Origin: Proteromonas lacertae | Taxonomy: Eukaryota | Assembly: GCA_002245135.1 (NCBI GenBank) | Contig: NGBS01000004.1 | Span: 248,001 to 312,000 of the forward strand | Direction of reading: 5' to 3' | Length of the DNA stretch: 64,000 bases | Part shown: positions 29,427-59,411 of the stretch, one piece after another | Layout: the number at the start of each line of letters is the position of its first letter | Numbering within the stretch: position 1 is the first letter of the stretch | Notes under the pieces: generated by a model | What the model was told of the DNA's origin: nothing | Databases searched by the model: none | Seen by the model: only the letters and a program-made list of their open reading frames with translations | Translations under genes and position numbers: made by a program

Positions 29427-30501
29427 TCATTCTTTTTTATAATCTGAATTCTTTTTTATAAATATACAATTATTCTTTATTTTACATTTTTCATTTCTTA
29501 TAAATGATATACGGCTAACCATACTTCGTGTTGATAACAAAAGGTAATTACATTTAGATAATAATTCAATTTCAATTAACACACTACTTGCATACATGTT
29601 ATATTTTTTTAAAATATAATCCCTTGAGTGTTTTAAATTTCTAGGATAATGTAAATGTTTTTTAAACTCTAATGTATAGTTACTATATTTATTACTTATC
29701 TTATATGATATTTTTGATGAATCTGTGCAAACTAGCCATTTAATATTAAAACTATCATGTGATTTGTTTAACGCCAACCTAATAAATTGATTTATAGAAT
29801 TAGTACCTCCAAACCAAGGTGCTATTTCGCCTAATTCTGCGCTTATACCTGTTCTAATATGCATTCCTATAATATATTTAGATGTATATTTCTTCATATA
29901 ATTTTCTACAGTATTTAATATTTTATTACTGGGAATGTATATGTTATACATGAAAATATTGAATAATATGTCATCATTATATTTGTATTTGACATTATTA
30001 TGAAATATTCTGTTTAAATATTGTCTTTCTTTGTTATTATAATATATTGAAACGGTATAATGAAGTTCAATTATTATGTTTTGATCTTTTGATTTTTTCA
30101 TCATTTCATATTGTATATGTGGTTCAAATTGATTAGAATAGCTGAGTATATAATAATTAAGCATATTACTATAATTAAAATATTTAAATGCATTATTAAT
30201 ATTACACAATGAAAAATAATCTTTCATATATTTCCATAATCCAACTAATATTATAAATATATGTATATATACATTCCAATTTTCTATTTGTTACTAATGA
30301 CAATAAAAGTACTTGAAAAAGATCTAATAAATGATTAGCAATTCCACATTTGGAATGAGGCAAATAATGAATATATTTGGAGTATAGTTCTCTTTCCTTA
30401 ATTATATTGTTACACACAGAATTATTATATTTATACTCATATTTATTATTTATGAATGATAAAAAAATAAACATAATAAAAATCACAATATATAATATCA
30501 T
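29427..30501 (-). CDS. Fucosyltransferase-like GT-B protein (NodZ/GT23/GT11-like), type II membrane; one intron near 30247-30274
   Basis: N-terminal TM, CGIANHL..., IGMHIRTG (motif I), LVCTDS (II), EIELLSKCNYLL..S (III). Confidence 0.72.
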
Positions 30502-30544
30502 TAATTATCAATCTTATTACTAAATAATAGGTGAATGAAATCAT

Positions 30545-31670
30545 ATGAGATATTTATTCATAATAGAAATTGATATTCTCCGTATAATATTTATTACAAT
30601 TCTCACTTTATTTATTATTCAATTTACTTATATTTTACCAAAACAGCTCAATATAATATCAAAGATATTGCCACATGGACTAGCTAATAGAATTAATTGC
30701 ATTTCATCTTCATTATTAATCTCTTTTTTATCAAGAAGATATCTGTTGGGTATTAATAAATATTATAATGTGTATAGTTCAACACTTCTATTTACTACAA
30801 TCCGTAGTAGTAATAAATTCGACATATTCAATTATTTCAGATGATAAGGATTATTTATCTAATAATTTTACTAAACACGAAAAGATCTGCATTAATCCTT
30901 GTGATTTATATAAACAGATTATATTTTCTAAAGATAGAAATTTAGTCTTTTTTAGTGTTGTTGATATTATACCATCACTAGTTAAATGTAAAATATATTT
31001 TCGATTCTTCTTAATAAATGGATTTATAAGCAAATCTAATAAAAATGATATAATATATCAAATACTAGAAATAAATAATATACTATTTTCAAAGTATATC
31101 TACTTTAGAAAGAAGTACAGAAGTAGATATATATTATTTTATAAAAACTTAAGAAATTACAATTACAGTATAGGAATACATTATAGAATGAAAGATAGAT
31201 GCTTTAAAAATGAATGTAATATAACTAAAAATATTAAGAAAAGAATTAAAAGTGAATTAAATAGTTCATACACAAATTCAAGTGTAATTTTTATTAGCAC
31301 TATAAATAATTATATCGCAAACGAACTATTAAATGGATATAAATATATTCAATATTTGCCAAACATTAAAGCTTTTCATATATCAATGTTAAACAGAAAT
31401 ATGGGAGAGGATGAAAAATCAAAACTAATAGGAGATATTTTATTAATTGCTTCTGCAAAATACTTAATACTCACTAAGGGTAGCACCTTCTCTTTACTTA
31501 TTTTATCAATAGGAGGGTTAGATTCAAGAGGAAATAGGAAAAAATATTTAATAATCGATAGCGATGGAAATAGAATTAATGACTCACATATAGATATAAT
31601 TGATACACAAATGAAAAGTCATAAATGCATTAAAGCAATTTATTATTATGTTTCAAAGAAATATACTTAA
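30545..31670 (+). CDS. Fucosyltransferase-like GT-B protein; one intron near 30750-30777
   Basis: TM, HGLANRI..., IGIHYRMKD, IFIST, DILLIASAKYLILTKGSTFS. Confidence 0.72.
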
Positions 31671-31702
31671 ATTGATGTAGCATTTTACTAGTTTATAATG
31701 TA

Positions 31703-32830
31703 ATGTTTTTGTCATTTATATTAAAAATATATACCATATTTCTATTTTATTATTTTTTTATCATAGTAAATACATCACTATATAAAATAGAATATAATTG
31801 TATTACTACAAAGAAAATATATGCAATATATAATATATCAAAAAAGATATTAAACAATAGCGTTCATATTTCATCTAAAAAGAAATATATATCATTTCTA
31901 TTCAACACAAATATAGAAACATTTTATTTAAAAAATATTGACAGCGATAAATACAATTTGTTATTAGTTGAGAATGCTTATATAACAGACAGAGTTATAA
32001 TTCACAATTGCAAAATTCTAATGTTTTCTGGACAATGTAATTGTAGTAATTGGTATAAAAGTAATATCATTTTTAAAGAATTAATTTCATCTGTTAAATA
32101 TGGTTTTGCAATAATTAATTGGCATAGTGATGGTGTGTTTCATGGTACAATAGAAGGTTTAACAAGAATTGTTCCTTATATTGATTATTTGACTCATAAT
32201 CAAGTAATATTTATAATTATTTCCTATCCAAGATACAAACAAAATACAGCAGCAAAAATATTAGAGTTATTAGGTTTCTCTAGAAGAAGAATTCTATATG
32301 GTAAATATAATGTTCAGAATTTATATATTCCAACACCATATTATTGTGTAGAAACATCTACACCATTAATTGTTGAATTTAATAATATTTTGAGGAGAAA
32401 AATTATGAACAAAAAATGTTATATTTATAAAAGAAAGTATATTTTAGTACTTCAAAGATCCAAGAATAGAGTATTTCAAAATTTTAAGAATATAATAAAG
32501 GAATTAAAAAAACAATTTAAATACAATATTGTAGTTTATCATGATTCTAACAAAAATTTAGATCAAATTTATTGCTGGTTTACATATGCATCAGTTATAA
32601 TTGGTTATCATGGTTCAGGTTTAACTAATATATATTTTTCTAAACCAAATGCTATTATAATTGAAATATCACCTATAAATCCTATTTATGCTTTTGCTAA
32701 ATTAGGAAGCCAACTTGGTTTTTCATATTATATTTATAAGTTGTCATATAAAGAATTATATTTAAAGAATATAAATCTAAATATATCAACTTTAATTGAA
32801 GCGATTAAAAATAATTACATAATTATTTAA
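31703..32830 (+). CDS. Glycosyltransferase family 61 (DUF563)
   Basis: N-terminal TM, VFHGTIEGL, QRSKNR, ASVIIGYHGSGLTNIYFSKPNAIIIEI. Confidence 0.82.
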   Translation: MFLSFILKIYTIFLFYYFFIIVNTSLYKIEYNCITTKKIYAIYNISKKILNNSVHISSKKKYISFLFNTNIETFYLKNIDSDKYNLLLVENAYITDRVIIHNCKILMFSGQCNCSNWYKSNIIFKELISSVKYGFAIINWHSDGVFHGTIEGLTRIVPYIDYLTHNQVIFIIISYPRYKQNTAAKILELLGFSRRRILYGKYNVQNLYIPTPYYCVETSTPLIVEFNNILRRKIMNKKCYIYKRKYILVLQRSKNRVFQNFKNIIKELKKQFKYNIVVYHDSNKNLDQIYCWFTYASVIIGYHGSGLTNIYFSKPNAIIIEISPINPIYAFAKLGSQLGFSYYIYKLSYKELYLKNINLNISTLIEAIKNNYIII

Positions 32831-32861: not shown

Positions 32862-33674
32862 TCAATTATATATAGCTGTACAAAACGGTTTCCAAGAATA
32901 ACATTTAACATTGTTTATGACTTTTCTTTTTTTTGCCATTATAATTGAATGACTATATATATTTACATCATCTAATAATAATAAAGAATTTGAGTGAGAA
33001 AGGCTTTTCATATTAATAATATCATTATATATTACTTTTTGTTTATGACATCCGTCAATGTGAATAATATCGCATTTATCAAATGAAGGATATAATTCTT
33101 TAAATAATGGTACATTTATTTGACTATCACCCCACATCATATTCATATTAAAATATTTTGATACTAATCTATATGCATCTTTTGAATAAGCATGGCCATA
33201 ATCAAATCCTGAATATGTTACATTATGTCTTACTGCTGTTATTAGAGTAATAGCACCCACACCCAATTGAAATCCTATTTCACAAATAATCTTTATTCTC
33301 TTTTTTCTATTATAATCAACTATTAATTGATGATATTTTTCCATTTGATAGAAAAACATCCCTATATCCCCGTCTTTATTACTTAGATTACCAATAATTT
33401 TTGTCATTCTTATTGATTTTGCATACATTCTAATTCCATCAATTATATAAAATAAAGGCACTGATTTATTTCTATAATATATAGATATGCAATGCAATTG
33501 TTTGTCTATATTTGGAATTTTATTATATGATTCATATATTACTTCCAAATAGTATTTATTATTATAACTCACTAAATATTCGTTGTAATAATTGATATAT
33601 GTTTTATTATATAAAGAATTTGAGAATATGCTAATCAGCATACAACTCACTACAAAAAATAAAAAGAAATTCAT
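32862..33674 (-). CDS. Class I SAM methyltransferase (Methyltransf_24-like), type II membrane
   Basis: ICEIGFQLGVGA, WGDSQINVP, CDIIHIDGCH, LLLLDD. Confidence 0.8.
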   Translation of the reverse strand: MNFFLFFVVSCMLISIFSNSLYNKTYINYYNEYLVSYNNKYYLEVIYESYNKIPNIDKQLHCISIYYRNKSVPLFYIIDGIRMYAKSIRMTKIIGNLSNKDGDIGMFFYQMEKYHQLIVDYNRKKRIKIICEIGFQLGVGAITLITAVRHNVTYSGFDYGHAYSKDAYRLVSKYFNMNMMWGDSQINVPLFKELYPSFDKCDIIHIDGCHKQKVIYNDIINMKSLSHSNSLLLLDDVNIYSHSIIMAKKRKVINNVKCYSWKPFCTAIYN

Positions 33675-33755: not shown

Positions 33756-34586
33756 TTAATATCTAAAATAATTGATGAAAGAATGCTTCTTCATTATGAA
33801 TGTTTTATTGTTATCATAATGAATGGATATATTATTTCTTCCTCTATATATACATAATTCTTTTATACCATAAATATATGATATAATTGTAAATGCACTT
33901 TGATCATATCTATGGTTTTTAAGACTTGACCCATTAGGTGAAATACAGTTTAAAGAAAATGAACATTTTTTCCATGCTTCTAACACTTTTATAGATACTT
34001 GTGATGGAAACATAAATGCGACTGTTGCAGCAGAGCATGATGGTAATTTTAGTATACTGTTGTTTATCTTAAAATAATCAGACATTCCTTTATGTGTATA
34101 AGGTTGTAATGAATGAAATCCTTTTTCAGACCATACGTGATATTTCTTTATATGAACTAGTATCCCATCTAACGATCCTAAAATGTTGCATCCGCTATCT
34201 AGCCAAATTAAAGGCAACTTATATATATAATAAGTTTCATATATAATTACTGCTTTCCAAGCATATTTACCATAATCAATATTTACATTGAAATAAGATG
34301 GATATTTATTATAGTTAAAATTTTTAAAAATTATATTTTTGTGATAGTTAGAATAGTTTAATAATATGTTATATATATATTTAGAAAGACCAATATTCCA
34401 TACTATTAAATAACAATGTTTCACATACCTATTATATGAAATAATAAAATTTAATAGAGATAATTCATGATTCGATGAAGCAGCAGTTGTAACAACACAG
34501 TAATTTACTTTTCCGTGGATAAATAAAGATGTAACTATAAAAGATATTATTGTTGAATAGAAGAGTAAATACAGAAGTATAAGCAA
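33756..34586 (-). CDS. DUF1647-like GT-A-type protein; no ATG before the conserved domain (TTG start?)
   Basis: TM, VTTAASSNH, WNIGL, YAWKAVII, WLDSG, HRYDQSA. Confidence 0.72.
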   Translation of the reverse strand: MLILLYLLFYSTIISFIVTSLFIHGKVNYCVVTTAASSNHELSLLNFIISYNRYVKHCYLIVWNIGLSKYIYNILLNYSNYHKNIIFKNFNYNKYPSYFNVNIDYGKYAWKAVIIYETYYIYKLPLIWLDSGCNILGSLDGILVHIKKYHVWSEKGFHSLQPYTHKGMSDYFKINNSILKLPSCSAATVAFMFPSQVSIKVLEAWKKCSFSLNCISPNGSSLKNHRYDQSAFTIISYIYGIKELCIYRGRNNISIHYDNNKTFIMKKHSFINYFRY

Positions 34587-34635: not shown

Positions 34636-35481
34636 TTACTTATGTTTATTTAGTAATTCATTGAATTTATTAAATTTTGAATTATTATAATATTTAAAAT
34701 AACTATCAAAGTGAGTAGAAAAGCTTTTATTCCTACTTATACTATTTCCAAAATGATTTTGGTATAACAATATTGATAATACACTTTGATCTTGTCTATG
34801 ATTTTTTCTACTAGATCCTATTGGAGCTATGCAATTCTTTATTAAAGCACATGCTTTCCATAAAAACAGAATAGTAATTATTTTATTTGAAAAATAGTAC
34901 AATCCAACAACCCCTGCTGCACACATAGTTTTATTATATATATTTTCTTCTACATTTAGTAAATAGAAGAGACTGTTATATGTGTATCTTTTAATTGTAG
35001 TGCCAGAGCTAATTGTGTAGATATATTTTTTATGTATTTCTTTATATTCATAATCTAATTTACTTTTAATAAAACATCCACTATCTAGCCATAATAAGGT
35101 TTTTTTATATATGATATAAGTGTCATATATAATAAACGGCTTCCATGAATAATAACCTGAGTTTATGCTGATATTAAAGTGACTAGGATATAAAGAATAA
35201 TTAAAGTGATGAATTAGTATAATTATTTCTTTTCTTCTCACATAACTTTGTAATTTATACAATTTCTTAATATTACAATCTGATAATCCTAAGTTCCATA
35301 AAATTAGGCATATTTGATTTTCAACAACTAAAATTCTGTAAACAAATAGTAAAAGTAAATGAAAATGATTATTTGATGAGCCAGTTACTAACAGCTTGTA
35401 TTTTAATGGACATAAGGGATAATTTATGTTAATAAAATAGTAAATAGTTATAAAAGAAACTATCAATAATACAATTATCAT
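34636..35481 (-). CDS. DUF1647-like GT-A-type protein (tandem paralogue)
   Basis: TM, VTGSSNNH, WNLGL, YSWKPFII, WLDSG, CIAPIGSSRKNHRQDQS. Confidence 0.78.
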   Translation of the reverse strand: MIIVLLIVSFITIYYFININYPLCPLKYKLLVTGSSNNHFHLLLLFVYRILVVENQICLILWNLGLSDCNIKKLYKLQSYVRRKEIIILIHHFNYSLYPSHFNISINSGYYSWKPFIIYDTYIIYKKTLLWLDSGCFIKSKLDYEYKEIHKKYIYTISSGTTIKRYTYNSLFYLLNVEENIYNKTMCAAGVVGLYYFSNKIITILFLWKACALIKNCIAPIGSSRKNHRQDQSVLSILLYQNHFGNSISRNKSFSTHFDSYFKYYNNSKFNKFNELLNKHK

Positions 35482-35639
35482 ATACAATAGTTACTAATAT
35501 AAGCAGGCATTAATGATGTAGAAAATGTTAATTATATCATACTATTTAGTGTAAAGATCATTTTAAAAATAAATCTAAATAATATGTAAAATGATGAATT
35601 TTACATGTAAATTCATAATACTTCATCTCTAGTTGTATA

Positions 35640-36250
35640 GCGTCAACACTCTGCTCTCTTTTTCCAGAAATCGTAGATATACTCAATTGGGTTTAATGAT
35701 TTCATAGAAGCAAAAACTGTAATACTATTATTACCATATTTAATCTAATTATGCAACATACCAAGTTCTCATATTGAAGAAATAATTGTAATTTCGTTTG
35801 AATTACTTCTCATATGAACTATAGGAGTCTAGCCTACATACGCAGGTCTAAATCCACTATCTTGGAATTTAATTAACTTTCGAACAACAGATAGTCTTTG
35901 TTAAACAGGTTAGGTATATTATCTTTATTACAACCTCTAATTACATAACTTTTTAATGCTATGTTAGGAAATCCATCATCCATCATCCTTTTTGTTAAAT
36001 GTCGATGGATAGTTGAAGTGCTTTTGTTATTTTCTCGAATTTTATTGATTAATATCTAAGATTCTGATTAATAGATATTAATATCACCTCCTTTGTTTAG
36101 AATTCTTAACAAGTTTTTTACTCTAGTGATGTTTATATTGGTCATACTGGAGTAGTAATCTGTTTTGGTATACTTTTTTCTCAGATTGTTCTTTAGCTTC
36201 ATTAGCTTTAAGTTTAGATTTTTTGGAAGATATAACTTCTAATAGTTCAA
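35640..36250 (-). mobile_element. Decayed IS630/Tc1-mariner transposase relic
   Basis: Minus strand SLNPIEYIYDFWKKRAE (DDE_3 C-terminal motif) and ITIISSI*ELGMLH. Stops and frameshifts. Matches the relic at 59412. Confidence 0.65.
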
Positions 36251-36254
36251 TATT

Positions 36255-36810
36255 ATTTGGATCAGAATTGGGAGCGATAAGAAATGGAGGTATTATAGCA
36301 AAAGACCATGATGTAGATATAATTATTCCTGTATGGCTTAATTATAAAATATTTAGATGTGATCAATATTTTGAATTTTATCCTCATAAATGTTATATAT
36401 ATTCAAATAGAGACACTTTAATTTGTAACAAAACAAAACATGATTTTATGATTATATTAAGAGATTATATTGAAAAGAGACTAAATATGACTATAAATTA
36501 TAGATGTATAGATTGGGGTAAGTATGGATACACAAGTTGTTGGACAATGAATTATAGAAACTGTTTTCTTGATTTATGGATTCTAATTGGTACTGAATAT
36601 TTTTATCAAAATATAAATATATGTCATTGCTATTTTTCTAATGTATTGACTTTCTGTAGTGAATATGCAAGAGAAAATGTTTTAAAAATGTATGGAAAAA
36701 AATGGAAAATTCCTATAAAGAAAGGTTCTGGTGCTACAGCATGTAATATTGTTTTAACACCTAACTTCAATAACTCAATTAAAAGATATATTATTAATAA
36801 TTTAAAATAA
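36255..36810 (+). pseudogene. 5'-truncated LicD-family gene (copy cut at the inverted-repeat boundary)
   Basis: Identical to 58432-58987 from FGSELGAIR onward, but lacks the TM anchor and start. Confidence 0.8.
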
Positions 36811-36826
36811 TTATCCCTTATGAAAT

Positions 36827-38011
36827 TTAGAATATAATTTTGCTTAAAATTACATTCAATTCATTAATGCCAACTGTGATTTTTTCATCTGTTGTATTTA
36901 CAAATAAACCAAAATATGATAGACCTAGTTTACTTGCTAATGATGTATAACACAAATTCTTCACAAGAAACTCAACAATTGTGGCTTTTTTTGAAAGTAT
37001 TATGTTTGATAAACCAGCTCCATGAGGTGCAACTATCAGTTTAGCATATTTAAAATAGTTCAATGTATTATTAAAAGTTGTATTTGGATAATAAATTACA
37101 ATTTTAAATTTGCTATATCTTTCTTTTAACAAGTTGTAAACTTTACAAAAGTTTGTAATATCTCTTTTACCAAATCTTTTTATTAAAACGATTTCATAAA
37201 TTAATTTAGAATTGATTTTTTTCCTTAAAAAATATCTTAAAAAATATAAATGAATTATAGGTGGAGTAGATCCACAACTACCTTTCTCTAATATTATTAA
37301 TCTTTTCACATGAATATTTCCATAAATAATCCTAGAATCATCAAATCCTATAAATTTTAAATACAATACATTTGCAGATTTGGAAGTGTGTATTTTTATT
37401 GATTCATCTCTCAATAATTCTGTAATGTAAAAACCTAATTTAGTTAAACATTCAACAATTGAATGAAAAACAGCATTTCCCCAATGATGTGTTATTGATA
37501 CAACCTTATCGTATTGGTTGTAGTATGTATTACTATGATAAAGAATGGGTATAAAATCACATTTACATCCTCCTTTTGTAGTTATATTATAATAAAATGA
37601 ATGAATACTCCCTTCATTTGTTATTATTACATCTGTAAAGCCGTAAATTTTAAGTTGTTGTATTATGTGAAGATGAGTATAATTAGTAATGATAATTGGA
37701 GATCTGTCAATTAATGACATATAAAATGAATCAGAGTACTTTTTTATTCTAATGTTTATCTTAGTGGAAATAAATATACGCGAATATGTAAAATTGTAAG
37801 TATCTAAGTCCACGCAACTGAGTGATATGTTTGAATTAGCATTATGTTTAAGATCAATTAATTTACTTAAATTATTAAAGGCATTAAATAGAAAATAAGA
37901 TTCATTTTTATTATATTCATATCTGCTGTAGTATATATAATAATAAGTATATATTAAACATAGATATAATAATGAATATTTAAATTTAATAAATGAAAAT
38001 TTTCTCAACAA
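36827..38011 (-). CDS. Glycosyltransferase family 61 (TTG start?)
   Basis: TM, NAVFHSIVECL, KRFGKR, AKLIVAPHGAGLSNIIL. Confidence 0.8.
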   Translation of the reverse strand: MLRKFSFIKFKYSLLYLCLIYTYYYIYYSRYEYNKNESYFLFNAFNNLSKLIDLKHNANSNISLSCVDLDTYNFTYSRIFISTKINIRIKKYSDSFYMSLIDRSPIIITNYTHLHIIQQLKIYGFTDVIITNEGSIHSFYYNITTKGGCKCDFIPILYHSNTYYNQYDKVVSITHHWGNAVFHSIVECLTKLGFYITELLRDESIKIHTSKSANVLYLKFIGFDDSRIIYGNIHVKRLIILEKGSCGSTPPIIHLYFLRYFLRKKINSKLIYEIVLIKRFGKRDITNFCKVYNLLKERYSKFKIVIYYPNTTFNNTLNYFKYAKLIVAPHGAGLSNIILSKKATIVEFLVKNLCYTSLASKLGLSYFGLFVNTTDEKITVGINELNVILSKIIF

Positions 38012-38157
38012 AAATATAAATAAAGTAAAAGTGTGTTATATCAATATTATAGGAAGGTGATAAACTTGTAGAGTGATGATAATTCTACAACTTAATATAT
38101 CAATTAACAAATTTTGACATATACAATTTCCCATCTTCATGTTTAATTTTCACTTTA

Positions 38158-39188
38158 TTATTTGTACAATTCTAAATGCAATTTACATTTCCCAAAGTAT
38201 TTATATCTTCTTCTATTATTAAATCCTAATTTGTTTGAAAATAAGCTAATTAAACTGAAAGAACTACATCTAGTAAGAATTAAAGTATTTGATTTACTTA
38301 ATATATAATAATCTATTATAGCTTCGATTGCACATTTATTATTATTATGTAATAAACCATATCCTGAATTACATGAAGTAAAATTTGAAAAATATGAATT
38401 AGGTAATTCATTTCTGAATAATTCTTTTAATTTTAATGAGTCGGAACTGACATAAATACTTTCATTAGAAGTAATATTCTTTAGATAATATATAATATCT
38501 CTTGAATCTTCATATTTCAAATAGTGTAATAAATATTCTTTTCCGTCAGCTTTTCCTGTTCTTAAATGAATTCCAATACTATAACCATTTTTAATTATAG
38601 CATTTGCTTTTAATTTTATCGAATTACTAATTTGAAGAAAGTGAAAAGATATTTTGTATGCTAGTTCATTTACCATAATTATCTTATTTATATTAAAGCT
38701 AATAGCATGATTATTTAATAAATAATTCAATGATTTATTATCATATATTACATTCATTATTCCATAAAAATGACCATTAAAGGAAATATTGTATATGCTT
38801 ATATTTGTTTGAATAATTAAAGGAAATATAAAATACCACCACAAACTATTCCAATTATTAATGTTTAAAGAGTAGGAGAAACTTATACAATAAGCTAGCG
38901 AGCTAATCAATCCAAGTAACTTATTACCTAAACCACATGATTTGCAGGGATTATATTCTGCATAATCTCTATACCTTCTAATATTGTTTGTATATATATA
39001 TTTAGTGTATATATTATTTATATTTTTTCTATTCTCTAAAATATGATAATAATCTGAATAGACTGTTAAAAGAGTAAGAAAGTATATACATAAAATAGTG
39101 AAAATAATGATTAGTAAACTAATAATCTAGTTTAATTATTTATCATATAAATTCAATCTAATATTACTTCCAAAATTAGCTTAAACAT
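38158..39188 (-). CDS. Fucosyltransferase-like GT-B protein with a 21-nt first exon
   Basis: Mirror of 56055-57085. CGLGNKL, IGIHLRTG, IYVSSDS, AIIDYYILSKSN...SSFS. Confidence 0.78.
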
Positions 39189-39575
39189 CTTATGATTGAT
39201 TAGAATTCTAAATTTATATAGTATATATATGGGACATTGGCTCAATGTCACAGATTTCCAACGAGTGTTCTAGAGGTTCATCCCTTTCTAGATCAAGAGT
39301 TGACTTTACGGGATCTTCATTGATGTAATCGAAATGGATCAACTCCATAATAATCAACAGATTTATGCCGTTGAGAGAAATATATCAGCTGAGATGAATA
39401 AAAATGGAAAAATAGAAGTTATTATATTCTAGTAATTTTAAAACCTTAATTTCATTGTGAATTATTGCTATTGAAGTATAATATAAAGAATAAAGAAACA
39501 GTGTTAGATAAGTAGCTGATTAACCAACAACTTATAACATTGACCTATCACTATACTTTCTATATTATAGTGATA

Positions 39576-41303: not shown

Positions 41304-41770
41304 TTATAATTCTTGTTTGTGCACATAATTAATAGAAAATGAATTTTATATAAGATATGATATAAAAATTCTATTAAATGTTTAAATTGATTATGTTATA
41401 CCACTTACATTTGCGTATCACTATAATTTTTATTTTACTGAAGATAATATTTTAAATAGTTATTTTATGATCATTAATTTGGGAATTACTTCTTGGATAT
41501 TTATTTTTGCTAATGTATAAACGATATACATAAGCAATTAAAATAGTTCATTAAATATTTCTCTATTCCAGGTACTTTTACACTTATTCCAACTCTTTTT
41601 ACATGCTTGGTTTGTAATAATAATAGCAAGAATTGATTCATTCTTCTATATTTGAATCTTAGGGAAAATAACAGATATAATCTTTGTATTATACTCTTTG
41701 TAATAACAAATATATGAATCAATATTCTTATAAAACACATCTTCTACAATATTTTATGTAGAAACTAATC

Positions 41771-43983: not shown

Positions 43984-43988
43984 TAAAA

Positions 43989-46177: not shown

Positions 46178-47017
46178 ATGTTAAAAAATATTATATTATT
46201 AATAATTATTATTATAATATTCATAAATGCAACTCTTACTTTAAAGAGATCAAATTTCATTCATATTCATAATTATGGATCATTTTATAGAAATCTATGG
46301 AAATGTCCTATTCAAAACATTGATAATATCACTTATACTTTTTATTCTCAATGCAAATAAGATAAAATCTATTTTGATTTATATTTTGCCAAGCCACAAA
46401 TCCAAACTAATGGAATATTTGTCGAAATAGGTGCTTTAGATGGAAGTTATAGTAATACTCTATTCTATGAAAAAGAATTAGGGTGGAGAGGAATATTAAT
46501 TGAAGGATTGCCATCTAACTGTAGAAAATTATTGAGTATAAAGAGGAGAAGATCTGAAATATTCTGCACAGCTATTTGTCCATATTTTCCTAAAACAGTA
46601 GAGTTTTTTGATGTGTGGGGAATGGGTGGATTAAAAGAAAATAACCCTTTTTGGAATTAAAATAACAGAAAAATGAAAAAGACAGTTAATGTGACATGTA
46701 CAAACATAAAGGAAATATTTTATAGTACTGGTGTTACTCATATAGATTTTTTCTCACTTGATGTTGAAGGAGCAGAATATATGGTGCTAGACACATTTGA
46801 TTTTAATATAAGAGTTCATTATTGGGTTATTAAATTTAATAGTAAAAATAAACTCAAAGATGAATATGTAATTAAATTACTTTTAAAAAACGGTTATAGA
46901 AAATGTAAACTACCTAAAATGTATATAAGAAATGAATGTTTCTATGATCCATACTATGATAAAAAAGTAAAGAAATATAAGAATAAAGAAAAATATTATT
47001 ATAATGACTATATTTAA
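46178..47017 (+). pseudogene. FkbM-family methyltransferase with two in-frame TAA stops (46358, 46658)
   Basis: One frame: TM...YSQCK*DK...GIFVEIGALDG..SNTLFYEKELGWRGILIE...WN*N...HIDFFSLDVEGAE. Confidence 0.82.
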
Positions 47018-49522: not shown

Positions 49523-50281
49523 TTGAATTATATAAATATTATAATATTCTATAGTTTTGTTTCTACTATAACTTTTATCATATTTAAAAATACTAATGAC
49601 AAGAAACAGTCTATTCAAATTATGGTAATATCATGTAACAGATTTCTTTATTTAAATGAAACATTACAATCCATCAATTTGCACATAATAAAATATGATA
49701 AAGATATATTCTATACATTTGTCTTAATAGATCAAGGTACTGTAGAAAGGTACAGCGTTAGAGTAAATTATAATATATTAAACTCCTTCTACTTAAATCC
49801 TAAAAACTATCCATATTCATTTACCATTTTATTTTCATATATATATTTGCAATATATATTCATTTTAGAGGAAGATTGGTTAATTCAGGATAATATTCAT
49901 CAACAATATAATTTCTTTAAAAACTCTATATATGTATTATCTAATTTTTATGAAGTATATGGAATAGTATTAAGAAAAATGGTTATAAGTAATCCATATA
50001 AAACTTCCATTTCATTTAAAAGCAATAAGGTAAATATAATAATATTAAATCATCCATATCAAAATAGAAACTTTTTAAATGGCCCAACATTATATAAAAG
50101 TAAAGTTTTAAAGATGCTTAAAATGTATTACTCAGAGTATAAAGCAGGATTATTCTTTTTGAAATATAAGCTATACATGGCATTTGTATATAGAGAAAAT
50201 GATACTCATAAAGGAGTGATATTTAGACATATAGGTACAAACTCCACAAGATTGGGTTTATGTAACATTATTCTATATTAA
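49523..50281 (+). CDS. GT-A fold (GT2-like) glycosyltransferase, full-length copy (TTG start?)
   Basis: TM, IMVISCNRFLYLNETL, LIDQGT, YIFILEEDW, NGPTL, FRHIG. Confidence 0.72.
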   Translation: MNYINIIIFYSFVSTITFIIFKNTNDKKQSIQIMVISCNRFLYLNETLQSINLHIIKYDKDIFYTFVLIDQGTVERYSVRVNYNILNSFYLNPKNYPYSFTILFSYIYLQYIFILEEDWLIQDNIHQQYNFFKNSIYVLSNFYEVYGIVLRKMVISNPYKTSISFKSNKVNIIILNHPYQNRNFLNGPTLYKSKVLKMLKMYYSEYKAGLFFLKYKLYMAFVYRENDTHKGVIFRHIGTNSTRLGLCNIILY

Positions 50282-50415
50282 TATTAACTAACTTATTAAT
50301 TGTTATAAAAAAGATAAAAACCACCACAAATCATTATATATAATAAGTTGTATATTAATTTCTATCTATAATTACCTGAATATTGCTTTGCATAATAGCT
50401 AAGATAATTTGAATT

Positions 50416-51255
50416 ATGAATAAAATATTCATATTCTATCTATTAGTTATAGCTAATTTATTAATCATTTTGATGTATTATTATTTGTCAATTAGTAATA
50501 ATATTTCTTTATATAAAGAATATAGGGAAATAACATATTATGATTTAGGTTCAAATAATGGTGATTCTATATTATGGCTCTTTGGATACAAAAATCTCAA
50601 TAATTCATATCATGTTCCTTATCCAAAATTTCATCACTTTCCAACATCAAAAGTTAATGTTCATTCATTTGAAGCTAATCCTATGCTGTGCAAATACATA
50701 TTGCAAAATGTAAACTTTTTAAAAACAGTAACATTTAAATGCAATTTTTACATTAATTGTCCTGTTGCTGTGTCAAATAGAACAGAGTATCAAAATTTTA
50801 AGATAACTTCAGGATCATTAGGTAGTACATTATATTATAATGTGTCATACAAAAATTCTAAAATTCTAAAAATAAAATCAATAGACATATTATCATATAT
50901 TAATGAAAATATAAAACCAAATCATTTTAATATTCTAAAATTTGACATTGAAGGTGAAGAATATATAATGATTCCTGAATTAATTAAGAAAAATATTTTA
51001 AGATTTTTTGATATTGTTTTTTCAGAATTTCATCCTTATATAAATAATCCTGTAGGAATATATAAATCAAATGAAATATTCAATGAATTTAAGAATTATA
51101 TGGAAAATTTTATGATTCCTTATTTTGAAGAATACAATATAAGCAATGAATTAATGAAAATTTATCATTTCAAAATTGATATGTTGTACTATTTCAGAGG
51201 TGATTTATTTAAAGAAATAAAAAAGAAATTATACTATAATTATATCGGTTTGTAA
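50416..51255 (+). CDS. FkbM-family methyltransferase (duplicate of 43989-44828)
   Basis: Identical translation. Confidence 0.85.
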   Translation: MNKIFIFYLLVIANLLIILMYYYLSISNNISLYKEYREITYYDLGSNNGDSILWLFGYKNLNNSYHVPYPKFHHFPTSKVNVHSFEANPMLCKYILQNVNFLKTVTFKCNFYINCPVAVSNRTEYQNFKITSGSLGSTLYYNVSYKNSKILKIKSIDILSYINENIKPNHFNILKFDIEGEEYIMIPELIKKNILRFFDIVFSEFHPYINNPVGIYKSNEIFNEFKNYMENFMIPYFEEYNISNELMKIYHFKIDMLYYFRGDLFKEIKKKLYYNYIGL

Positions 51256-51260
51256 TTTTA

Positions 51261-52463
51261 TTGAAACTGATTATTATATTATATGCTAATATATTATTTT
51301 TATATACAATCATTATATTACTATACAATTTATTATCAAATAAATATTATTATAAAAAAGGGAAAATAATTAATATAAAGCCTATTGAAGTAGTAAAAAA
51401 TATTTTCTATATATCGCATTACTATGATATTCGCTATAAAGCAATTAGAATGCTATTCTATATTTACAATAATAGCAAAAATATACATAATATAACGTGC
51501 ACGATTATATATACTAATAATGTTAAAAAATGTAATATGGAAATAATCACTAAGATAGCAGAAGATAATACTGTTATGAATTTATTGCTATATACAAATA
51601 TTTTACCATTAAAAATGATATTAAATAAATCTATTATTTATATCTCAAAAATAAAAACGAAATATGAATTAAAAAGAAATAAATTAACTGTTTGTATAGG
51701 TAAAATGATTAACTTTATTGCATTTAACATGCTATTACAAATGATTGAATCTTATCTTTATTTTGGAGCTGATCATTTTATTGTGTATAATACTTCATGC
51801 TCTGAAAAAGTGAATAAAGTGTTGAAATTTTATTTGAACAAAGGGCTACTAGATGTTGTAAATTTAGATAATCATTTTGATATAAAATATGGAAAATATA
51901 AAACATATGCACAAAGATTAAAATTAAATGATTGTTTCTATAGAAGTTACTACGAAACGAAAAGTATTGTTATGACTGATTTAGATGAAATACTTTGGCC
52001 TAATTATGATAATAGTATTGCAAAAATGATTGATAAAATAGATCAACAACAAAGAAAAGTATATGATACATATATATTTCAAGAAAAAATATTTAAGCGA
52101 TTCTATGTTCCTTATTATGATAGATTAGTGCATAATATAAAAGATTGTAACATATTTGAATACCATAATTGTTGTGACTATACATGGAGATGGCCTAAAC
52201 TATTAATTAGAAATTTATCAAAAATTACTTCCGTTTCAATTCATTGGATTACAGGAAAACTGTATAACTATACAGAAATAAAAATTGATTCAAATATTGG
52301 ATTTATTAGACATACAAGAAGAATATATCCCTACATAATTAGTGGACTAATGGGAAACTGGAGTATATGTTCATCTGATAATAGAGAACTTGTTATACAT
52401 GATAGATCTAAAAAAATTAAAGATATACTATTTAAAGCTTGTCAATCAAACAATGGAAGATAA
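51261..52463 (+). CDS. GT92-like glycosyltransferase (duplicate of 42781-43983)
   Basis: Identical translation. Confidence 0.8.
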   Translation: MKLIIILYANILFLYTIIILLYNLLSNKYYYKKGKIINIKPIEVVKNIFYISHYYDIRYKAIRMLFYIYNNSKNIHNITCTIIYTNNVKKCNMEIITKIAEDNTVMNLLLYTNILPLKMILNKSIIYISKIKTKYELKRNKLTVCIGKMINFIAFNMLLQMIESYLYFGADHFIVYNTSCSEKVNKVLKFYLNKGLLDVVNLDNHFDIKYGKYKTYAQRLKLNDCFYRSYYETKSIVMTDLDEILWPNYDNSIAKMIDKIDQQQRKVYDTYIFQEKIFKRFYVPYYDRLVHNIKDCNIFEYHNCCDYTWRWPKLLIRNLSKITSVSIHWITGKLYNYTEIKIDSNIGFIRHTRRIYPYIISGLMGNWSICSSDNRELVIHDRSKKIKDILFKACQSNNGR

Positions 52464-53472
52464 GTAAAATTATTATCTTTATTTTGTAATATGTCGAATT
52501 TACATTTTTTATAGTACCATGGAAATTTAGTTCTTCTATGAAGAATATAATTCTTACTATAGTTAATTACTTTTGATTTGCAATTCTTTTTCAATATAAC
52601 AGTATGAATATCCACATAGTATACACATGTTGTATTATATATGATATATTTCCAAGGTGATGAAGGACAACGAGAGTATAATAAACTGTGATTATTGGTT
52701 ATTAACAATATAGAATGAAAATAATATATATCATAGTATGGTGAAAAAATCATACTATTTATTTTAAGTATCTCATCTTGATCAACAAATACAATATGTT
52801 TAGCATTATATTTATATCTAATAAAACAATCATTATGTTTCCATACATGGAGATAATTACCATATTTAAATGTTGTTGAATTGTTAGAATATTTATCTAA
52901 TATAATTGTTACTAATCCTTTTAATTTATATTCATTTAGTATTTTATCAATTTCTTCACCACAACTAGTTTTATAAACAACAAATAAATTTATTCCAAGG
53001 CTGATATAGTGGTTTATGAATGTATATAATTCATTAGCTTTTGTGTAATTAATAAAGGTTGTTAAACATAAAACGTTTTTATATTTGAATTTTACATTAT
53101 TACCTTTCAAAATTGTTGATCTGTCTAATATTTCTACATTTTTAACACTATAATAGTCTTTATAACCAAAAATAACATTATAATAGTATTTGTTGACATA
53201 ATGTTGAATAATTGGATATGAAAATTTATTTCTATCCAATAACAAAGTGGAAGTATATGATGATGATGCAATACTTCTATTTGTTATAAAAAGGATGAAT
53301 ATTACCTTCTTTTTTACCGTATCAATAAAAGAAGAAAAAATAAATACTCCATCGCTTACTCTTTTTATGTCTATATAATCAACATAACTACATATTTTAG
53401 CGTTATAAAAATCACTCGAAAGAAAAATAATATAAAAAATCCAAATATAGCTTTTGAATAACATATCTTCAT
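52442..53472 (-). CDS. GT92-like glycosyltransferase (duplicate of 41771-42802; 1-nt homopolymer deletion near the 5' end)
   Basis: Identical apart from one T-run length. Confidence 0.75.
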
Positions 53473-53939
53473 GATTAGTTTCTACATAAAATATTGTAGA
53501 AGATGTGTTTTATAAGAATATTGATTCATATATTTGTTATTACAAAGAGTATAATACAAAGATTATATCTGTTATTTTCCCTAAGATTCAAATATAGAAG
53601 AATGAATCAATTCTTGCTATTATTATTACAAACCAAGCATGTAAAAAGAGTTGGAATAAGTGTAAAAGTACCTGGAATAGAGAAATATTTAATGAACTAT
53701 TTTAATTGCTTATGTATATCGTTTATACATTAGCAAAAATAAATATCCAAGAAGTAATTCCCAAATTAATGATCATAAAATAACTATTTAAAATATTATC
53801 TTCAGTAAAATAAAAATTATAGTGATACGCAAATGTAAGTGGTATAACATAATCAATTTAAACATTTAATAGAATTTTTATATCATATCTTATATAAAAT
53901 TCATTTTCTATTAATTATGTGCACAAACAAGAATTATAA

Positions 53940-55667
53940 ATGAAGCAAGAAGAAACAATAGTATATAATCAATCTATATAGATTTAAAATCTTTGTGTCT
54001 TTATATTGTTCATTTAAATAGTATATTAGACGAAGGTATTATTGAATATATAAGAAGATCTAAAAGAATAATCTATAAATATAAAAATGATATATTTTCT
54101 TTAGCAATCAATAATATATCATATCCGCAGAGTATAGAGGTTAATTACTTGGATAATTATTTCAAAATATATGAAGAAATTGGCATAACAAATATACAAA
54201 AATGTGCTTTTGTGCTTGTTGCAGGAGGATTAGGTGAAAGACTAAATTGTGATTCTATTAAAGTATATTTATTTGATATTTACTGTTAAATTTAATAGAT
54301 AAGCTTAAATGTTGACCAGATTAGTGAATTATCATACTTAAATTTATACTTTCGTTATATTATTTCTTATCAAAATATGACAAAACAAATGATGTATGTA
54401 TGCATAATGACTTCGAAATCTACAAATATAAGAATAAAGCACTTTCTTGGAGAGAATGAATATTTTGGATTATCTAAAAATCAAATATACGTAATTGAAC
54501 ATCGTTTGATGATGAAAATTGTAATTTGCTATATAAAAATCATAAAATCATTACTAAACCACATGGTCATGGTGATATTCATAATTTGTTATTCTCAGTA
54601 TATATATGTCTTTATTGTCTAGAAAGGAGTATTAGACAATTGGAAATTGAAAGGAATTCAATATATGATAATTTTTCAAGATACTAATTCATTGGCTTTC
54701 GAAGCAATTCCAATTTTAATAGGAAGTACAATATTTAACAGATTAGAAGTAAATTATTTAACTGTTGAAAGATACAAAGGTGAAAAAGCATCAATAATGT
54801 GTTCGTGTGAAGAAAATGGTAGATACTATAATGTTAGAGCTATAGATTATTCTCTTTTGCCAAAATTGTTAGGAAAAATATAAATCAATTCAGTAAATCA
54901 GAAACTCTATATCCAGCTGTTACAAATATTATTTGCTTTGAGTTAAATAAATACTATAAAACTCTAAATAAAAAACCTGCCTGAATATATTCTTTCAAAA
55001 GAATTCAAATCATTTAGAATTGAAACAGTATTACAAGATTATATACTTCTTACTGATAATGAATCTAAAAATATGAGTGTGAATATGCCAAGATGGTTAT
55101 GCTTTAATCCAGTTAAAGAAACATCTGAGATTTCAGGATTATATTCTCCTAACAAAAAATATTGTTAATCATTTTACTGGAGTTTTAGTAATTGAAAATA
55201 ATTCAAAACTGGTAATAACAGGTAATGTTTTTATTAACAATTTACACTTAAAAGGTTGTTTAACAATCAAAGTAAAAGCAGGAGGATGTGTAAGATTGAA
55301 TAACATAAGTGTTAAAAATAGAGGATATAGAAGAACAATGGAAAAAAATCATATTTTTAATACTCATATAAACAATATTAGTGAGTATATATTGGAATAC
55401 GGAATAGGTAATTATAGCAGTTATACTAAAAAAGAATTAGGTTCTCATACTATGTTAACTAATTCAATCACTTTAATATGTTGTTTAATTTTTGTATCAT
55501 ATATCATTAATAAAAAGAGTTACAGTTATATGTATACTAAAAGCAAATTTGTAAGAAACAATGTAACTGTATGTTTGTTTCTACCAAGCGCTGTAACTGA
55601 TTTCCCATTTTTACAAAGCATTATAAATAGCGTTGATATTTTTTGGCCAAAAGGATTTAATTTTTAA
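53940..55667 (+). pseudogene. UDP-sugar pyrophosphorylase (duplicate, disrupted)
   Basis: Mirror of 39576-41303. Confidence 0.75.
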
Positions 55668-56054
55668 TATCACTATAATATAGAAAGTATAGTGATAGGT
55701 CAATGTTATAAGTTGTTGGTTAATCAGCTACTTATCTAACACTGTTTCTTTATTCTTTATATTATACTTCAATAGCAATAATTCACAATGAAATTAAGGT
55801 TTTAAAATTACTAGAATATAATAACTTCTATTTTTCCATTTTTATTCATCTCAGCTGATATATTTCTCTCAACGGCATAAATCTGTTGATTATTATGGAG
55901 TTGATCCATTTCGATTACATCAATGAAGATCCCGTAAAGTCAACTCTTGATCTAGAAAGGGATGAACCTCTAGAACACTCGTTGGAAATCTGTGACATTG
56001 AGCCAATGTCCCATATATATACTATATAAATTTAGAATTCTAATCAATCATAAG

Positions 56055-57085
56055 ATGTTTAAGCTAATTTTGGAAGTAATATTAGATTGAATTTATATGA
56101 TAAATAATTAAACTAGATTATTAGTTTACTAATCATTATTTTCACTATTTTATGTATATACTTTCTTACTCTTTTAACAGTCTATTCAGATTATTATCAT
56201 ATTTTAGAGAATAGAAAAAATATAAATAATATATACACTAAATATATATATACAAACAATATTAGAAGGTATAGAGATTATGCAGAATATAATCCCTGCA
56301 AATCATGTGGTTTAGGTAATAAGTTACTTGGATTGATTAGCTCGCTAGCTTATTGTATAAGTTTCTCCTACTCTTTAAACATTAATAATTGGAATAGTTT
56401 GTGGTGGTATTTTATATTTCCTTTAATTATTCAAACAAATATAAGCATATACAATATTTCCTTTAATGGTCATTTTTATGGAATAATGAATGTAATATAT
56501 GATAATAAATCATTGAATTATTTATTAAATAATCATGCTATTAGCTTTAATATAAATAAGATAATTATGGTAAATGAACTAGCATACAAAATATCTTTTC
56601 ACTTTCTTCAAATTAGTAATTCGATAAAATTAAAAGCAAATGCTATAATTAAAAATGGTTATAGTATTGGAATTCATTTAAGAACAGGAAAAGCTGACGG
56701 AAAAGAATATTTATTACACTATTTGAAATATGAAGATTCAAGAGATATTATATATTATCTAAAGAATATTACTTCTAATGAAAGTATTTATGTCAGTTCC
56801 GACTCATTAAAATTAAAAGAATTATTCAGAAATGAATTACCTAATTCATATTTTTCAAATTTTACTTCATGTAATTCAGGATATGGTTTATTACATAATA
56901 ATAATAAATGTGCAATCGAAGCTATAATAGATTATTATATATTAAGTAAATCAAATACTTTAATTCTTACTAGATGTAGTTCTTTCAGTTTAATTAGCTT
57001 ATTTTCAAACAAATTAGGATTTAATAATAGAAGAAGATATAAATACTTTGGGAAATGTAAATTGCATTTAGAATTGTACAAATAA
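56055..57085 (+). CDS. Fucosyltransferase-like GT-B protein; exon 56055-56075, intron 56076-56116
   Basis: MFKLILE spliced in phase 0 to the IISLLIIIFTIL TM anchor and the catalytic motifs. Confidence 0.78.
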
Positions 57086-57231
57086 TAAAGTGAAAATTAA
57101 ACATGAAGATGGGAAATTGTATATGTCAAAATTTGTTAATTGATATATTAAGTTGTAGAATTATCATCACTCTACAAGTTTATCACCTTCCTATAATATT
57201 GATATAACACACTTTTACTTTATTTATATTT

Positions 57232-58415
57232 TTGTTGAGAAAATTTTCATTTATTAAATTTAAATATTCATTATTATATCTATGTTTAATATATACTTAT
57301 TATTATATATACTACAGCAGATATGAATATAATAAAAATGAATCTTATTTTCTATTTAATGCCTTTAATAATTTAAGTAAATTAATTGATCTTAAACATA
57401 ATGCTAATTCAAACATATCACTCAGTTGCGTGGACTTAGATACTTACAATTTTACATATTCGCGTATATTTATTTCCACTAAGATAAACATTAGAATAAA
57501 AAAGTACTCTGATTCATTTTATATGTCATTAATTGACAGATCTCCAATTATCATTACTAATTATACTCATCTTCACATAATACAACAACTTAAAATTTAC
57601 GGCTTTACAGATGTAATAATAACAAATGAAGGGAGTATTCATTCATTTTATTATAATATAACTACAAAAGGAGGATGTAAATGTGATTTTATACCCATTC
57701 TTTATCATAGTAATACATACTACAACCAATACGATAAGGTTGTATCAATAACACATCATTGGGGAAATGCTGTTTTTCATTCAATTGTTGAATGTTTAAC
57801 TAAATTAGGTTTTTACATTACAGAATTATTGAGAGATGAATCAATAAAAATACACACTTCCAAATCTGCAAATGTATTGTATTTAAAATTTATAGGATTT
57901 GATGATTCTAGGATTATTTATGGAAATATTCATGTGAAAAGATTAATAATATTAGAGAAAGGTAGTTGTGGATCTACTCCACCTATAATTCATTTATATT
58001 TTTTAAGATATTTTTTAAGGAAAAAAATCAATTCTAAATTAATTTATGAAATCGTTTTAATAAAAAGATTTGGTAAAAGAGATATTACAAACTTTTGTAA
58101 AGTTTACAACTTGTTAAAAGAAAGATATAGCAAATTTAAAATTGTAATTTATTATCCAAATACAACTTTTAATAATACATTGAACTATTTTAAATATGCT
58201 AAACTGATAGTTGCACCTCATGGAGCTGGTTTATCAAACATAATACTTTCAAAAAAGCCACAATTGTTGAGTTTCTTGTGAAGAATTTGTGTTATACATC
58301 ATTAGCAAGTAAACTAGGTCTATCATATTTTGGTTTATTTGTAAATACAACAGATGAAAAAATCACAGTTGGCATTAATGAATTGAATGTAATTTTAAGC
58401 AAAATTATATTCTAA
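57232..58415 (+). CDS. GT61 (duplicate of 36827-38011; 1-nt A-run deletion near 58255)
   Basis: Identical apart from one homopolymer. Confidence 0.75.
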
Positions 58416-58431
58416 ATTTCATAAGGGATAA

Positions 58432-59178
58432 TTATTTTAAATTATTAATAATATATCTTTTAATTGAGTTATTGAAGTTAGGTGTTAAAACAATATTACA
58501 TGCTGTAGCACCAGAACCTTTCTTTATAGGAATTTTCCATTTTTTTCCATACATTTTTAAAACATTTTCTCTTGCATATTCACTACAGAAAGTCAATACA
58601 TTAGAAAAATAGCAATGACATATATTTATATTTTGATAAAAATATTCAGTACCAATTAGAATCCATAAATCAAGAAAACAGTTTCTATAATTCATTGTCC
58701 AACAACTTGTGTATCCATACTTACCCCAATCTATACATCTATAATTTATAGTCATATTTAGTCTCTTTTCAATATAATCTCTTAATATAATCATAAAATC
58801 ATGTTTTGTTTTGTTACAAATTAAAGTGTCTCTATTTGAATATATATAACATTTATGAGGATAAAATTCAAAATATTGATCACATCTAAATATTTTATAA
58901 TTAAGCCATACAGGAATAATTATATCTACATCATGGTCTTTTGCTATAATACCTCCATTTCTTATCGCTCCCAATTCTGATCCAAATCCTAAAAAATAAA
59001 CAATTTTTAGCTTTTTTAAGAAAGATATATATTTGATTATTATTTTGGTTCTGTTATAATCAAATGATTTTCTATTTACTTTCACCCATTTACAGAATGG
59101 GATATTATTTGAGTATAATATCAATAAAACAATCATTAATAGTATAATGTTATAACATAAATAGTTGGAAATATTCAT
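58432..59178 (-). CDS. LicD/fukutin-family nucleotidyltransferase-fold phosphotransferase, full length
   Basis: TM anchor, then YFLGFGSELGAIRNGGIIAKDHDVDI (LicD G.lLGA.R..g.ipWD.D.D), and LKMYGKKWKIP. Confidence 0.85.
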   Translation of the reverse strand: MNISNYLCYNIILLMIVLLILYSNNIPFCKWVKVNRKSFDYNRTKIIIKYISFLKKLKIVYFLGFGSELGAIRNGGIIAKDHDVDIIIPVWLNYKIFRCDQYFEFYPHKCYIYSNRDTLICNKTKHDFMIILRDYIEKRLNMTINYRCIDWGKYGYTSCWTMNYRNCFLDLWILIGTEYFYQNINICHCYFSNVLTFCSEYARENVLKMYGKKWKIPIKKGSGATACNIVLTPNFNNSIKRYIINNLK

Positions 59179-59411
59179 AATACTTATACGTAACGACATT
59201 TGTTGCAAAATAGATATACCGCATTGCATAACAAAAAAATCATTCATGCCATTGCATATTACTTATACTTTTTATCAAGCCATTTCATATTACATTTATA
59301 TGATTGCAAAATAAATATACATATCTCAAGCCTTTTCAAGAATTCTTTTATAATAGTCAAAGGACTGCTATATATCTATTCTCTTCATAGCAATCCTTTG
59401 TATTTTGAAGT

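Follow-up and report, generated by a model that had tools for sequence, protein, structure and literature searches.

The window analyzed here, a stretch of 64,000 nt of Proteromonas lacertae DNA (GenBank assembly GCA_002245135.1, contig NGBS01000004.1, positions 248,001 to 312,000 of the forward strand), holds at 29427–59200 a dense cluster of genes for enzymes that build and modify glycans. All 15 distinct glyco-genes listed in a preliminary description of this sequence were recovered, with family calls backed by Pfam, PDB, fold or profile matches, although weakly in three cases. The extent of about 30 kb given there has to be revised, because 9.27 kb are a near-identical inverted copy, which leaves about 20 kb of unique cluster, and a non-glyco insert (47100–49480) also lies inside; moreover, the list had overlooked a truncated gene for a type II membrane protein (71 aa, N-terminal anchor; 39576–39791, minus strand). 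All identifiable non-transposon genes (15/15) encode glyco-enzymes, which fall into nine families and have catalytic motifs in common with their relatives. As paralogs within the cluster are only 27–36% identical, they represent a set of different activities and not a tandem array.

Enzyme families and layout of the cluster

Three genes are fucosyltransferase-like and encode type II proteins: a NodZ/FUT8-like gene 1 (29427–30501, minus strand, 348 aa, one 28-nt intron for which 30245–30272 is preferred out of four solutions), gene 2 (30545–31670, plus strand, about 365 aa, one intron with 30750–30777 preferred out of seven solutions), assigned by motif alignment and the joint profile described below, and gene 3 (38158–39188, minus strand, 41-nt intron after codon 7), which is identical in both copies of the duplication. 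A NodZ/O-FucT Pfam match was obtained for two of the three (NodZ, E 3.7e-7, for gene 1), while a joint profile of the three proteins retrieved FUT8, aligned over its residues 324–444, at an E-value of only about 1e-3. The G-x-H-x-R motif is invariant in all three and motifs I–III, including the GDP-fucose-binding Arg that characterizes the alpha-2/alpha-6/O-fucosyltransferase superfamily, are present, which at the level of motifs places the three genes as putative members of this superfamily. The single-sequence fold prediction for gene 2 was too low in confidence to be used (predicted local distance difference test, pLDDT, of 37).

The two GT61 genes (GT61-1, 31703–32830, plus strand, type II, intact and intronless; GT61-2, 36827–38011, minus strand) matched Pfam with E-values of 7e-17 and 2e-20, respectively, and the two GT92 genes with 7e-16 and 2e-30. 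GT92-1 (41771–42802, plus strand) and GT92-2 (42781–43983, minus strand) both encode type II proteins and overlap by 22 nt at their 3′ ends, GT92-2 being identical in both copies. The DUF1647 pair (DUF1647-1, 33756–34586; DUF1647-2, 34636–35481; both minus strand and type II, the second intact) was identified by a Pfam match in DUF1647-1 and by the 36% identity of DUF1647-2 to it (E 2e-41). The structure model of DUF1647-1 (pLDDT 87) has an N-terminal helix (residues 2–23) followed by a GT-A fold that matched WbbM, UGGT and glycogenin in Foldseek (E 2e-7 to 1e-5); W128-x-D130-x-G132 is invariant, a DxD-like motif in which only the first Asp is kept. DUF1647 is therefore predicted to be a GT-A fold glycosyltransferase. 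A further GT-A/GT2-like enzyme of type II topology (49523–50281, plus strand, full copy) reached an atlas score of 0.97 to GT2-containing clusters, in which 15–25% of the members carry the Pfam annotation.

The decorating enzymes comprise an intact type II Methyltransf_24 S-adenosylmethionine-dependent methyltransferase (32862–33674, minus strand, Pfam E 1e-9), two FkbM methyltransferases (Pfam E 2e-7 and 4e-10), the first of which is type II and intact in both copies (43989–44828, minus strand), and a type II LicD-family phosphotransferase (full copy 58432–59178, minus strand, Pfam E 2e-5). A UDP-sugar pyrophosphorylase gene (USP; 39872–41303, minus strand) matched solved USPs in three pieces in the PDB search.

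The statement that the locus encodes almost only type II membrane enzymes holds for the 14 non-USP genes, 13 of which have a clear N-terminal anchor (hydrophobicity 1.9–3.1, compared to 1.3 in GT61-2), but not for USP, which is not a type II protein. USP is likewise the exception to the zero to one introns found in the other genes, as it has two clear introns and probably a third. Packing is close, as had been described, with a median gap of 49 nt across 13 gaps (two transposon-containing gaps excluded, one gap approximate) vs. about 146 nt across eight gaps to the left (verified end codons for six of the eight). Gene orientation alternates between strands, so the cluster is no operon and the label 'operon-like' had to be dropped. 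Frames of 248–400 codons are open in at least one copy for thirteen genes, in DNA of 77% AT. Genes for flippases, polymerases or exporters were not found in the scans of the cluster genes.

Duplication, gene decay and start codons

The segments 36255–45518 (copy A) and 49726–58987 (copy B) form a 9.27-kb inverted duplicate without a single substitution; the two differ at six 1-base indels, each of which falls in a homopolymer run. Copy A is the derived one, because it is cut inside both LicD (5′-truncated remnant 36255–36810, plus strand) and GT-A (5′-truncated remnant 44963–45518, minus strand), while copy B continues into the complete genes. On the left, copy A is abutted by a decayed Tc1/IS630-like transposase remnant (approximately 35600–36254, minus strand; tblastn match at 35616–35735, E 5e-6, to a DDE_3 piece at 59412–59810), and its right end leads to a palindrome (45740–46076; 120-nt arms, 92% complementary) resembling a miniature inverted-repeat transposable element (MITE), then to the FkbM2 pseudogene (46178–47017, plus strand) and to the 2.4-kb decayed, coding-like insert at 47100–49480 (plus strand), which is richer in GC (38.7%). 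We also considered that copy A interrupts a single gene, but joining its flanks gave only frames of 45–66 aa, which does not support this.

The 5′ end of the full LicD carries a Tc1/IS630-like element of 592 nt (59174–59765; 43-nt terminal inverted repeats, 98% identical; DDE_3 fragment), and the LicD ATG lies inside its terminal repeat; the element may have replaced the native start. Direct repeats of 1.65 kb bracket the cluster (26734–28368 and 59795–61446, both minus strand, 98% identical, the left copy with a 1-base difference near 28249), and recombination between them would delete it as a whole. Each encodes a P-loop-like protein and a 167-aa open reading frame (ORF); weak P-loop Pfam matches (E 0.02–0.05) were obtained for the right copy, the atlas score stayed < 0.8, and by eye the pair has some resemblance to multicopy genes of the CRN/RHS type. 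A (GTTGTA)n tandem repeat precedes the right copy. A second GC-richer (37%), decayed, coding-like remnant occupies the left edge of the cluster (28480–29420) and has a CxxC-rich piece. Both inserts contain many in-frame stops and returned no PHROGs match and no Pfam match at E 0.01, and they are possibly old viral or transposon DNA. Reading them with the ciliate code (table 6) was rejected, since the longest frames of 289 and 185 aa did not amount to a single gene.

Birth and death of genes had been proposed from the presence of pseudogenes. Several lesions look real: FkbM2 has two in-frame TAA codons (46358–46360, 46658–46660), USP, a probable pseudogene, has two frameshifts common to both copies, LicD and GT-A are cut in copy A, and the 71-aa gene is a fragment; FkbM2, USP and the truncated copies thus look truly broken. 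The breaks in copy B of GT61-2 (1-base frameshift at 58251) and GT92-1 (at 53424; copy A intact), and part of the USP damage (copy-specific homopolymer indels), are probably assembly errors, as the copies are identical apart from such single-base differences in homopolymers. The same is suggested by two copine genes to the left (10760–12444 and 15774–17457), an inverted pair with a near-identical middle part and diverged 3′ ends, the second of which has its frame broken by three 1-base insertions in about 400 bp, probably assembly errors as well. Gene turnover is thus genuine, although less pronounced than the raw frames imply.

Four genes, DUF1647-1, GT61-2, GT92-2 and GT-A, have no in-frame ATG ahead of the anchor, and the first Met appears at codons 168, 106, 71 and 36 of their open frames, respectively. 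Each has an in-frame TTG within 10 codons of the frame start (34586, 38011 and 43983 on the minus strand, 49523 on the plus strand), from which the frame is open (in copy A for GT61-2), and that of GT92-2 aligns with an internal Met in a homolog (P0003). With introns of 18–129 nt allowed, an upstream ATG could be joined to the frame in GT61-2 (by a 105-nt intron) but in none of the other three. If genes decayed neutrally by substitution, only 4–6% of them would be expected to lose the start codon before any other lesion arose, and a TTG within ten codons has a chance probability of about 0.12, or up to about 0.25 in anchor-coding sequence. Several details count against UUG initiation: three of the four TTGs read ATTG and the assembly contains erroneous insertions, an out-of-frame ATG lies next to a run of Ts in GT92-2, and GT-A adjoins the insert, which may have displaced a first exon. 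True UUG initiation in these four genes is hence a serious candidate that we consider rather less probable than its possible alternatives together, namely a hidden exon, start loss or a base error; if the TTG starts were used, nuclear non-AUG initiation would be concentrated in one pathway.

Composition, relatives and comparable loci

The cluster is indeed more AT-rich than the genes to its left (22.5–22.7% vs. 27.9% GC), but the difference lies in the amino acids. GC at third codon positions (GC3) is 0.164 in the cluster and 0.157 on the left and fourfold-site GC 0.119 and 0.097, whereas Phe, Tyr, Met, Ile, Asn and Lys (FYMINK) make up 50% of the residues vs. 34% (4110 and 3430 codons). With a host-like GC3 and a high FYMINK share, the AT-richness resides in codon positions 1 and 2, i.e., it reflects amino-acid drift. 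Foreign codon use was ruled out by GC3 and fourfold-site GC, and judged from these sequence statistics the composition is a signature of fast-evolving resident genes and not of recent import.

The closest relatives, from the Logan assemblies, form paralog sets both for GT92 (8/9 matches at 33–63% identity) and for DUF1647 (four of seven matches at 41–65% identity). In a FastTree phylogeny of 72 rows, built from the best 70 of 150 listed matches, GT61-1 and GT61-2 fall in one clade of 15 rows (support 98); the next-nearest GT61s are of the eukaryotic type II kind, with an N-terminal hydrophobic segment in 67 of 110 full-length matches. The only informative name among the ten GT61 clusters looked up was Lingula anatina (37% identity over the matched stretch), whose GT61 paralogs thus belong to the nearest relatives with a name. 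The four named members of this cluster (P0180) come from three gene identifiers with similar numbers, and each lists a longest contig of 1,215,759 bases, a hint that GT61 genes are locally clustered in an animal too. No related GT61 locus was found in metagenome contigs and no match in plasmids; for GT92, viral and metagenome contigs gave no related locus and the PDB no sequence match, and GT-A had no match among phages.

In a quick IQ-TREE phylogeny of DUF1647 (102 rows, 10 of 102 matches < 150 aa left out, no cellular eukaryote sampled), the window proteins and their Logan relatives come out together (SH-aLRT 91); their group is placed among viral rows and is not part of the prokaryote clade. 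Its viral sister (locus L013) is a long branch, and the branch of DUF1647-1 measures 0.24 vs. 0.29 for its ortholog. Relatives occur at 30 viral loci, 16 of them named GVMAG, and viral and prokaryotic proteins are mostly 21–39% identical to the window protein; they lack the N-terminal anchor in the viral case (scores ≤ 1.33 vs. 2.5–2.7 in the window). A glyco-enzyme neighbor was present within 2.6 kb at 13 of the 19 viral loci scanned (Pfam, hand count; 109 of 134 listed ORFs, 19 of 30 loci, with prokaryotic neighbors compared to window proteins only), which supports a glycan role for the DUF1647 family. At one giant-virus locus (L023:6285–14317), DUF1647 lies amid three GT6 genes, GT2/GT92-like genes and a Methyltransf_24 gene, next to the major capsid gene. 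For the DUF1647 family, a viral donor is a possibility. Horizontal origin was addressed in trees for two of the nine families, with poor eukaryotic sampling, and neither nests in bacteria; the trees suggest that both GT61 and DUF1647 of the window are products of lineage-specific radiations and not of a bacterial import. The bacterial or viral affinity considered in the preliminary description finds no support in codon use or in these two trees.

That account had also called such clusters rare in eukaryotes, which overlooks the small outlier chromosomes (SOCs) of Mamiellales (PMC5082852, PMC3491373). Chromosome 19 of Ostreococcus tauri, in the part of PMC5082852 that deals with it, has a low GC content and is enriched for glycosyltransferase and methyltransferase genes, GT92 and FkbM among them; the genes on its large inverted repeat stay silent and are switched on in virus-resistant lines. 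Chromosome 19 of Bathycoccus prasinos, as covered in the relevant part of PMC3491373, has few introns and 24 of its 34 annotated genes (24/72 genes) in these two classes, and a review agrees with this picture where it treats SOCs (PMC5371798). The cluster has in common with SOCs a low GC content, few introns, the dominance of glycosyltransferases and methyltransferases, GT92 and FkbM, recent paralogs and a proposed role in surface glycans, and with O. tauri in particular a large inverted repeat, here known from the assembly alone, and transposon-related sequence. It differs in having about 20 kb of unique sequence inside a normal chromosome arm instead of a chromosome of 146–311 kb, in consisting almost entirely of identifiable type II enzymes (against 24/72 genes in the two classes in Bathycoccus), in its host-like GC3 with low GC caused by amino-acid drift, and in its host, a stramenopile and not a green alga. 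In this comparison the cluster looks like a miniature, chromosome-internal SOC, yet it is not one, since it has no separate chromosome and belongs to another lineage.

Giant-virus (Nucleocytoviricota) blocks (for instance L006, L013, L019, L023 and L027) likewise place DUF1647 beside GT11, GT2, GT92-like, FkbM and Methyltransf_24 genes in packed, mixed orientation, but the window genes differ in having anchors, introns and the codon use of the host, and a viral core gene was not detected among them. Bacterial capsule and O-antigen loci unite transferases, O-methyltransferases, LicD and a nucleotide-sugar enzyme, as the cluster does; in contrast, the cluster has mixed strands, no flippase, polymerase or exporter, predicted lumenal membrane-anchored enzymes and a DUF1647 outside the prokaryote clade. 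Families and type II topology also recur in Golgi enzymes of animals and nematodes, i.e., FUT8 (GT23), GALT-1 (GT92), POMGNT2/EOGT (GT61) and fukutin/FKRP (LicD), from which the cluster proteins are distant in sequence (37% for the GT61 relative), and to our knowledge the genes of these enzymes do not form one multi-family cluster. The main texts (without supplements) covered in our literature search contain no description of such a glyco-cluster in this group. The same applies to the main texts, as far as consulted, of the Blastocystis genome papers (PMC12129017, PMC5608401, PMC3129679, PMC10690189), whose supplements may hold tables of carbohydrate-active enzymes. Within this coverage, a compact multi-family glyco-enzyme cluster in a stramenopile is new, with the Mamiellales SOCs as its closest eukaryotic precedent.

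Interpretation and genomic surroundings

We think that the cluster is probably a fast-changing toolkit with which this stramenopile synthesizes and modifies, in its Golgi, at least one glycan of the cell surface. Going by what is known of the families, GT61, DUF1647 and GT-A would extend sugar chains, the FUT8/NodZ-like enzymes would add fucose, and GT92 would transfer galactose, perhaps to this fucose in the manner of nematode GALT-1. FkbM and Methyltransf_24 would O-methylate sugars, LicD would add a phospho-substituent, and USP would once have supplied UDP-sugars, with the enzymes acting in the Golgi on shared or related surface glycans. Sugar donors would be made elsewhere, because the cluster has no nucleotide-sugar transporter or GDP-fucose pathway and USP looks dead. 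Transposon-assisted duplication, truncation and recombination between repeats would alter the gene content, and lineages, with viruses or host lectins as selecting agents, would come to differ in their surface glycan.

Several observations weigh against this toolkit interpretation. Acceptor and donor specificities are read from family names only, and both fucosyltransferase-like gene 2 and GT-A are without a Pfam match. Without genes for nucleotide-sugar transport or GDP-fucose synthesis among its members, the cluster is not a self-contained pathway; as the whole window is gene-dense, its packing is only about threefold tighter than that of the left-hand genes. Moreover, with USP and FkbM2 apparently dead and four genes lacking an ATG before the anchor, the locus may be largely decaying.

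One alternative is a transposon-rich sink, in which intron-poor, drifting and dispensable glyco-genes gather and decay, without a common product or a role in distinguishing strains. The Tc1/IS630 remnants, the MITE and the two decayed inserts fit it, as do the FYMINK-rich proteins that relaxed constraint predicts and the tally of two pseudogenes, three fragments and four missing ATGs. We nevertheless regard it as improbable, given that a neutral sink would not select glyco-enzymes of nine families in 15 out of 15 identifiable non-transposon genes, that thirteen long frames stay open in such AT-rich DNA, and that the DUF1647-1 branch is no longer than that of its ortholog. Of comparably low probability is a more ambitious version of the toolkit interpretation, a eukaryotic counterpart of a 'serotype locus', i.e., an exchangeable linked cassette that would define the surface glycan of the stramenopile and be gained, lost or reshuffled via the direct repeats and the inverted duplication, with UUG starts tuning the dose of several enzymes; if true, SOC-like glycan islands arose convergently outside green algae.

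Transfer of the whole block in one step from a giant virus or bacterium, with anchors fitted later, would account for the few introns, the tight packing and the mixed orientation seen in giant-virus glyco-blocks, for DUF1647 at 30 viral loci, often beside glycosyltransferases, FkbM or Methyltransf_24, for the position of the window DUF1647 clade among viral rows and outside the prokaryote clade, and for the viral clusters that neighbor GT-A in the atlas. We hold it to be quite unlikely, since GC3 and fourfold-site GC are host-like, viral and prokaryotic DUF1647s are distant, the DUF1647 tree has no cellular eukaryotes and a long-branched viral sister, the next-nearest GT61s are eukaryote-type, USP has spliceosomal introns, and Pfam and other profile scans detected no viral hallmark gene among the ORFs scanned in the window. 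An assembly product has an equally slim chance in our view; much of the anatomy would then be artificial, the duplicate stemming from a mis-join or from an allele that was not collapsed, and base errors would have created the breaks and TTGs in what is a small, ordinary glycosyltransferase group. The absence of substitutions across 9.27 kb with six homopolymer indels, the insertions in the copine duplicate and the A preceding three of the four TTGs speak for it; on the other side, copy A borders on unique sequence at either end (the transposase remnant and the MITE spacer), a spacer of 4.2 kb does not look like that of a fold-back, the repeats flanking the cluster have direct and not inverted orientation, the unique 20 kb still form a 15-gene glyco-cluster, and an error rate that hits three of about 15 starts would also shatter the frames.

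Eukaryotic multi-family glycan clusters are best known from the outlier chromosomes of Mamiellales, where they are tied to virus resistance; with a compact counterpart in a stramenopile, SOC-like islands would become a recurring eukaryotic strategy. As a single locus, its presence, content and expression can be compared with glycan type, virus sensitivity or host range, and it offers uncharacterized enzymes, such as DUF1647 as a predicted GT-A transferase.

The cluster is continuous with housekeeping genes in the same window. The 26 kb to its left encode NECAP/DUF1681, RGS, a cis-prenyltransferase, the two copines, PPCS, RCC1 and HslV, as well as RPL12, which was read from the translation. These genes had been called intron-dense, but they are a mix: of the seven (out of 14) that were modeled, three are intronless and four have 1–3 introns. 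Introns in the modeled window genes are GT-AG and about 25–52 nt long, and stop codons are canonical. An EGF-repeat gene (12616–13800) has its best PDB matches in tubular mastigoneme proteins (OCM5, E 4e-9) and a weak SHIPPO-repeat match (E 2e-4) lies at 21634–21945, similarities that point to a flagellated stramenopile with tubular hairs. A GC content of 27.0%, in agreement with the window, is given for Proteromonas, a gut flagellate of the Opalinata, and the loss of nearly all flagellar genes for Blastocystis, in the part of PMC12129017 consulted; the gene-end motif of Blastocystis, TGTTTGTT, has just 8 occurrences in the window, which together with the canonical stops and the mastigoneme-like and SHIPPO-like genes speaks against Blastocystis DNA. 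The intronless cis-prenyltransferase gene (6269–7018) has one Logan relative at 88% identity, followed by matches at about 40%, the named ones of which are bacterial undecaprenyl diphosphate synthases, and on these similarities an old transfer from bacteria is possible. The sole Rfam match in the window is a tRNA gene (5232–5313) located 25 nt upstream of the start of a PAP2-like gene.

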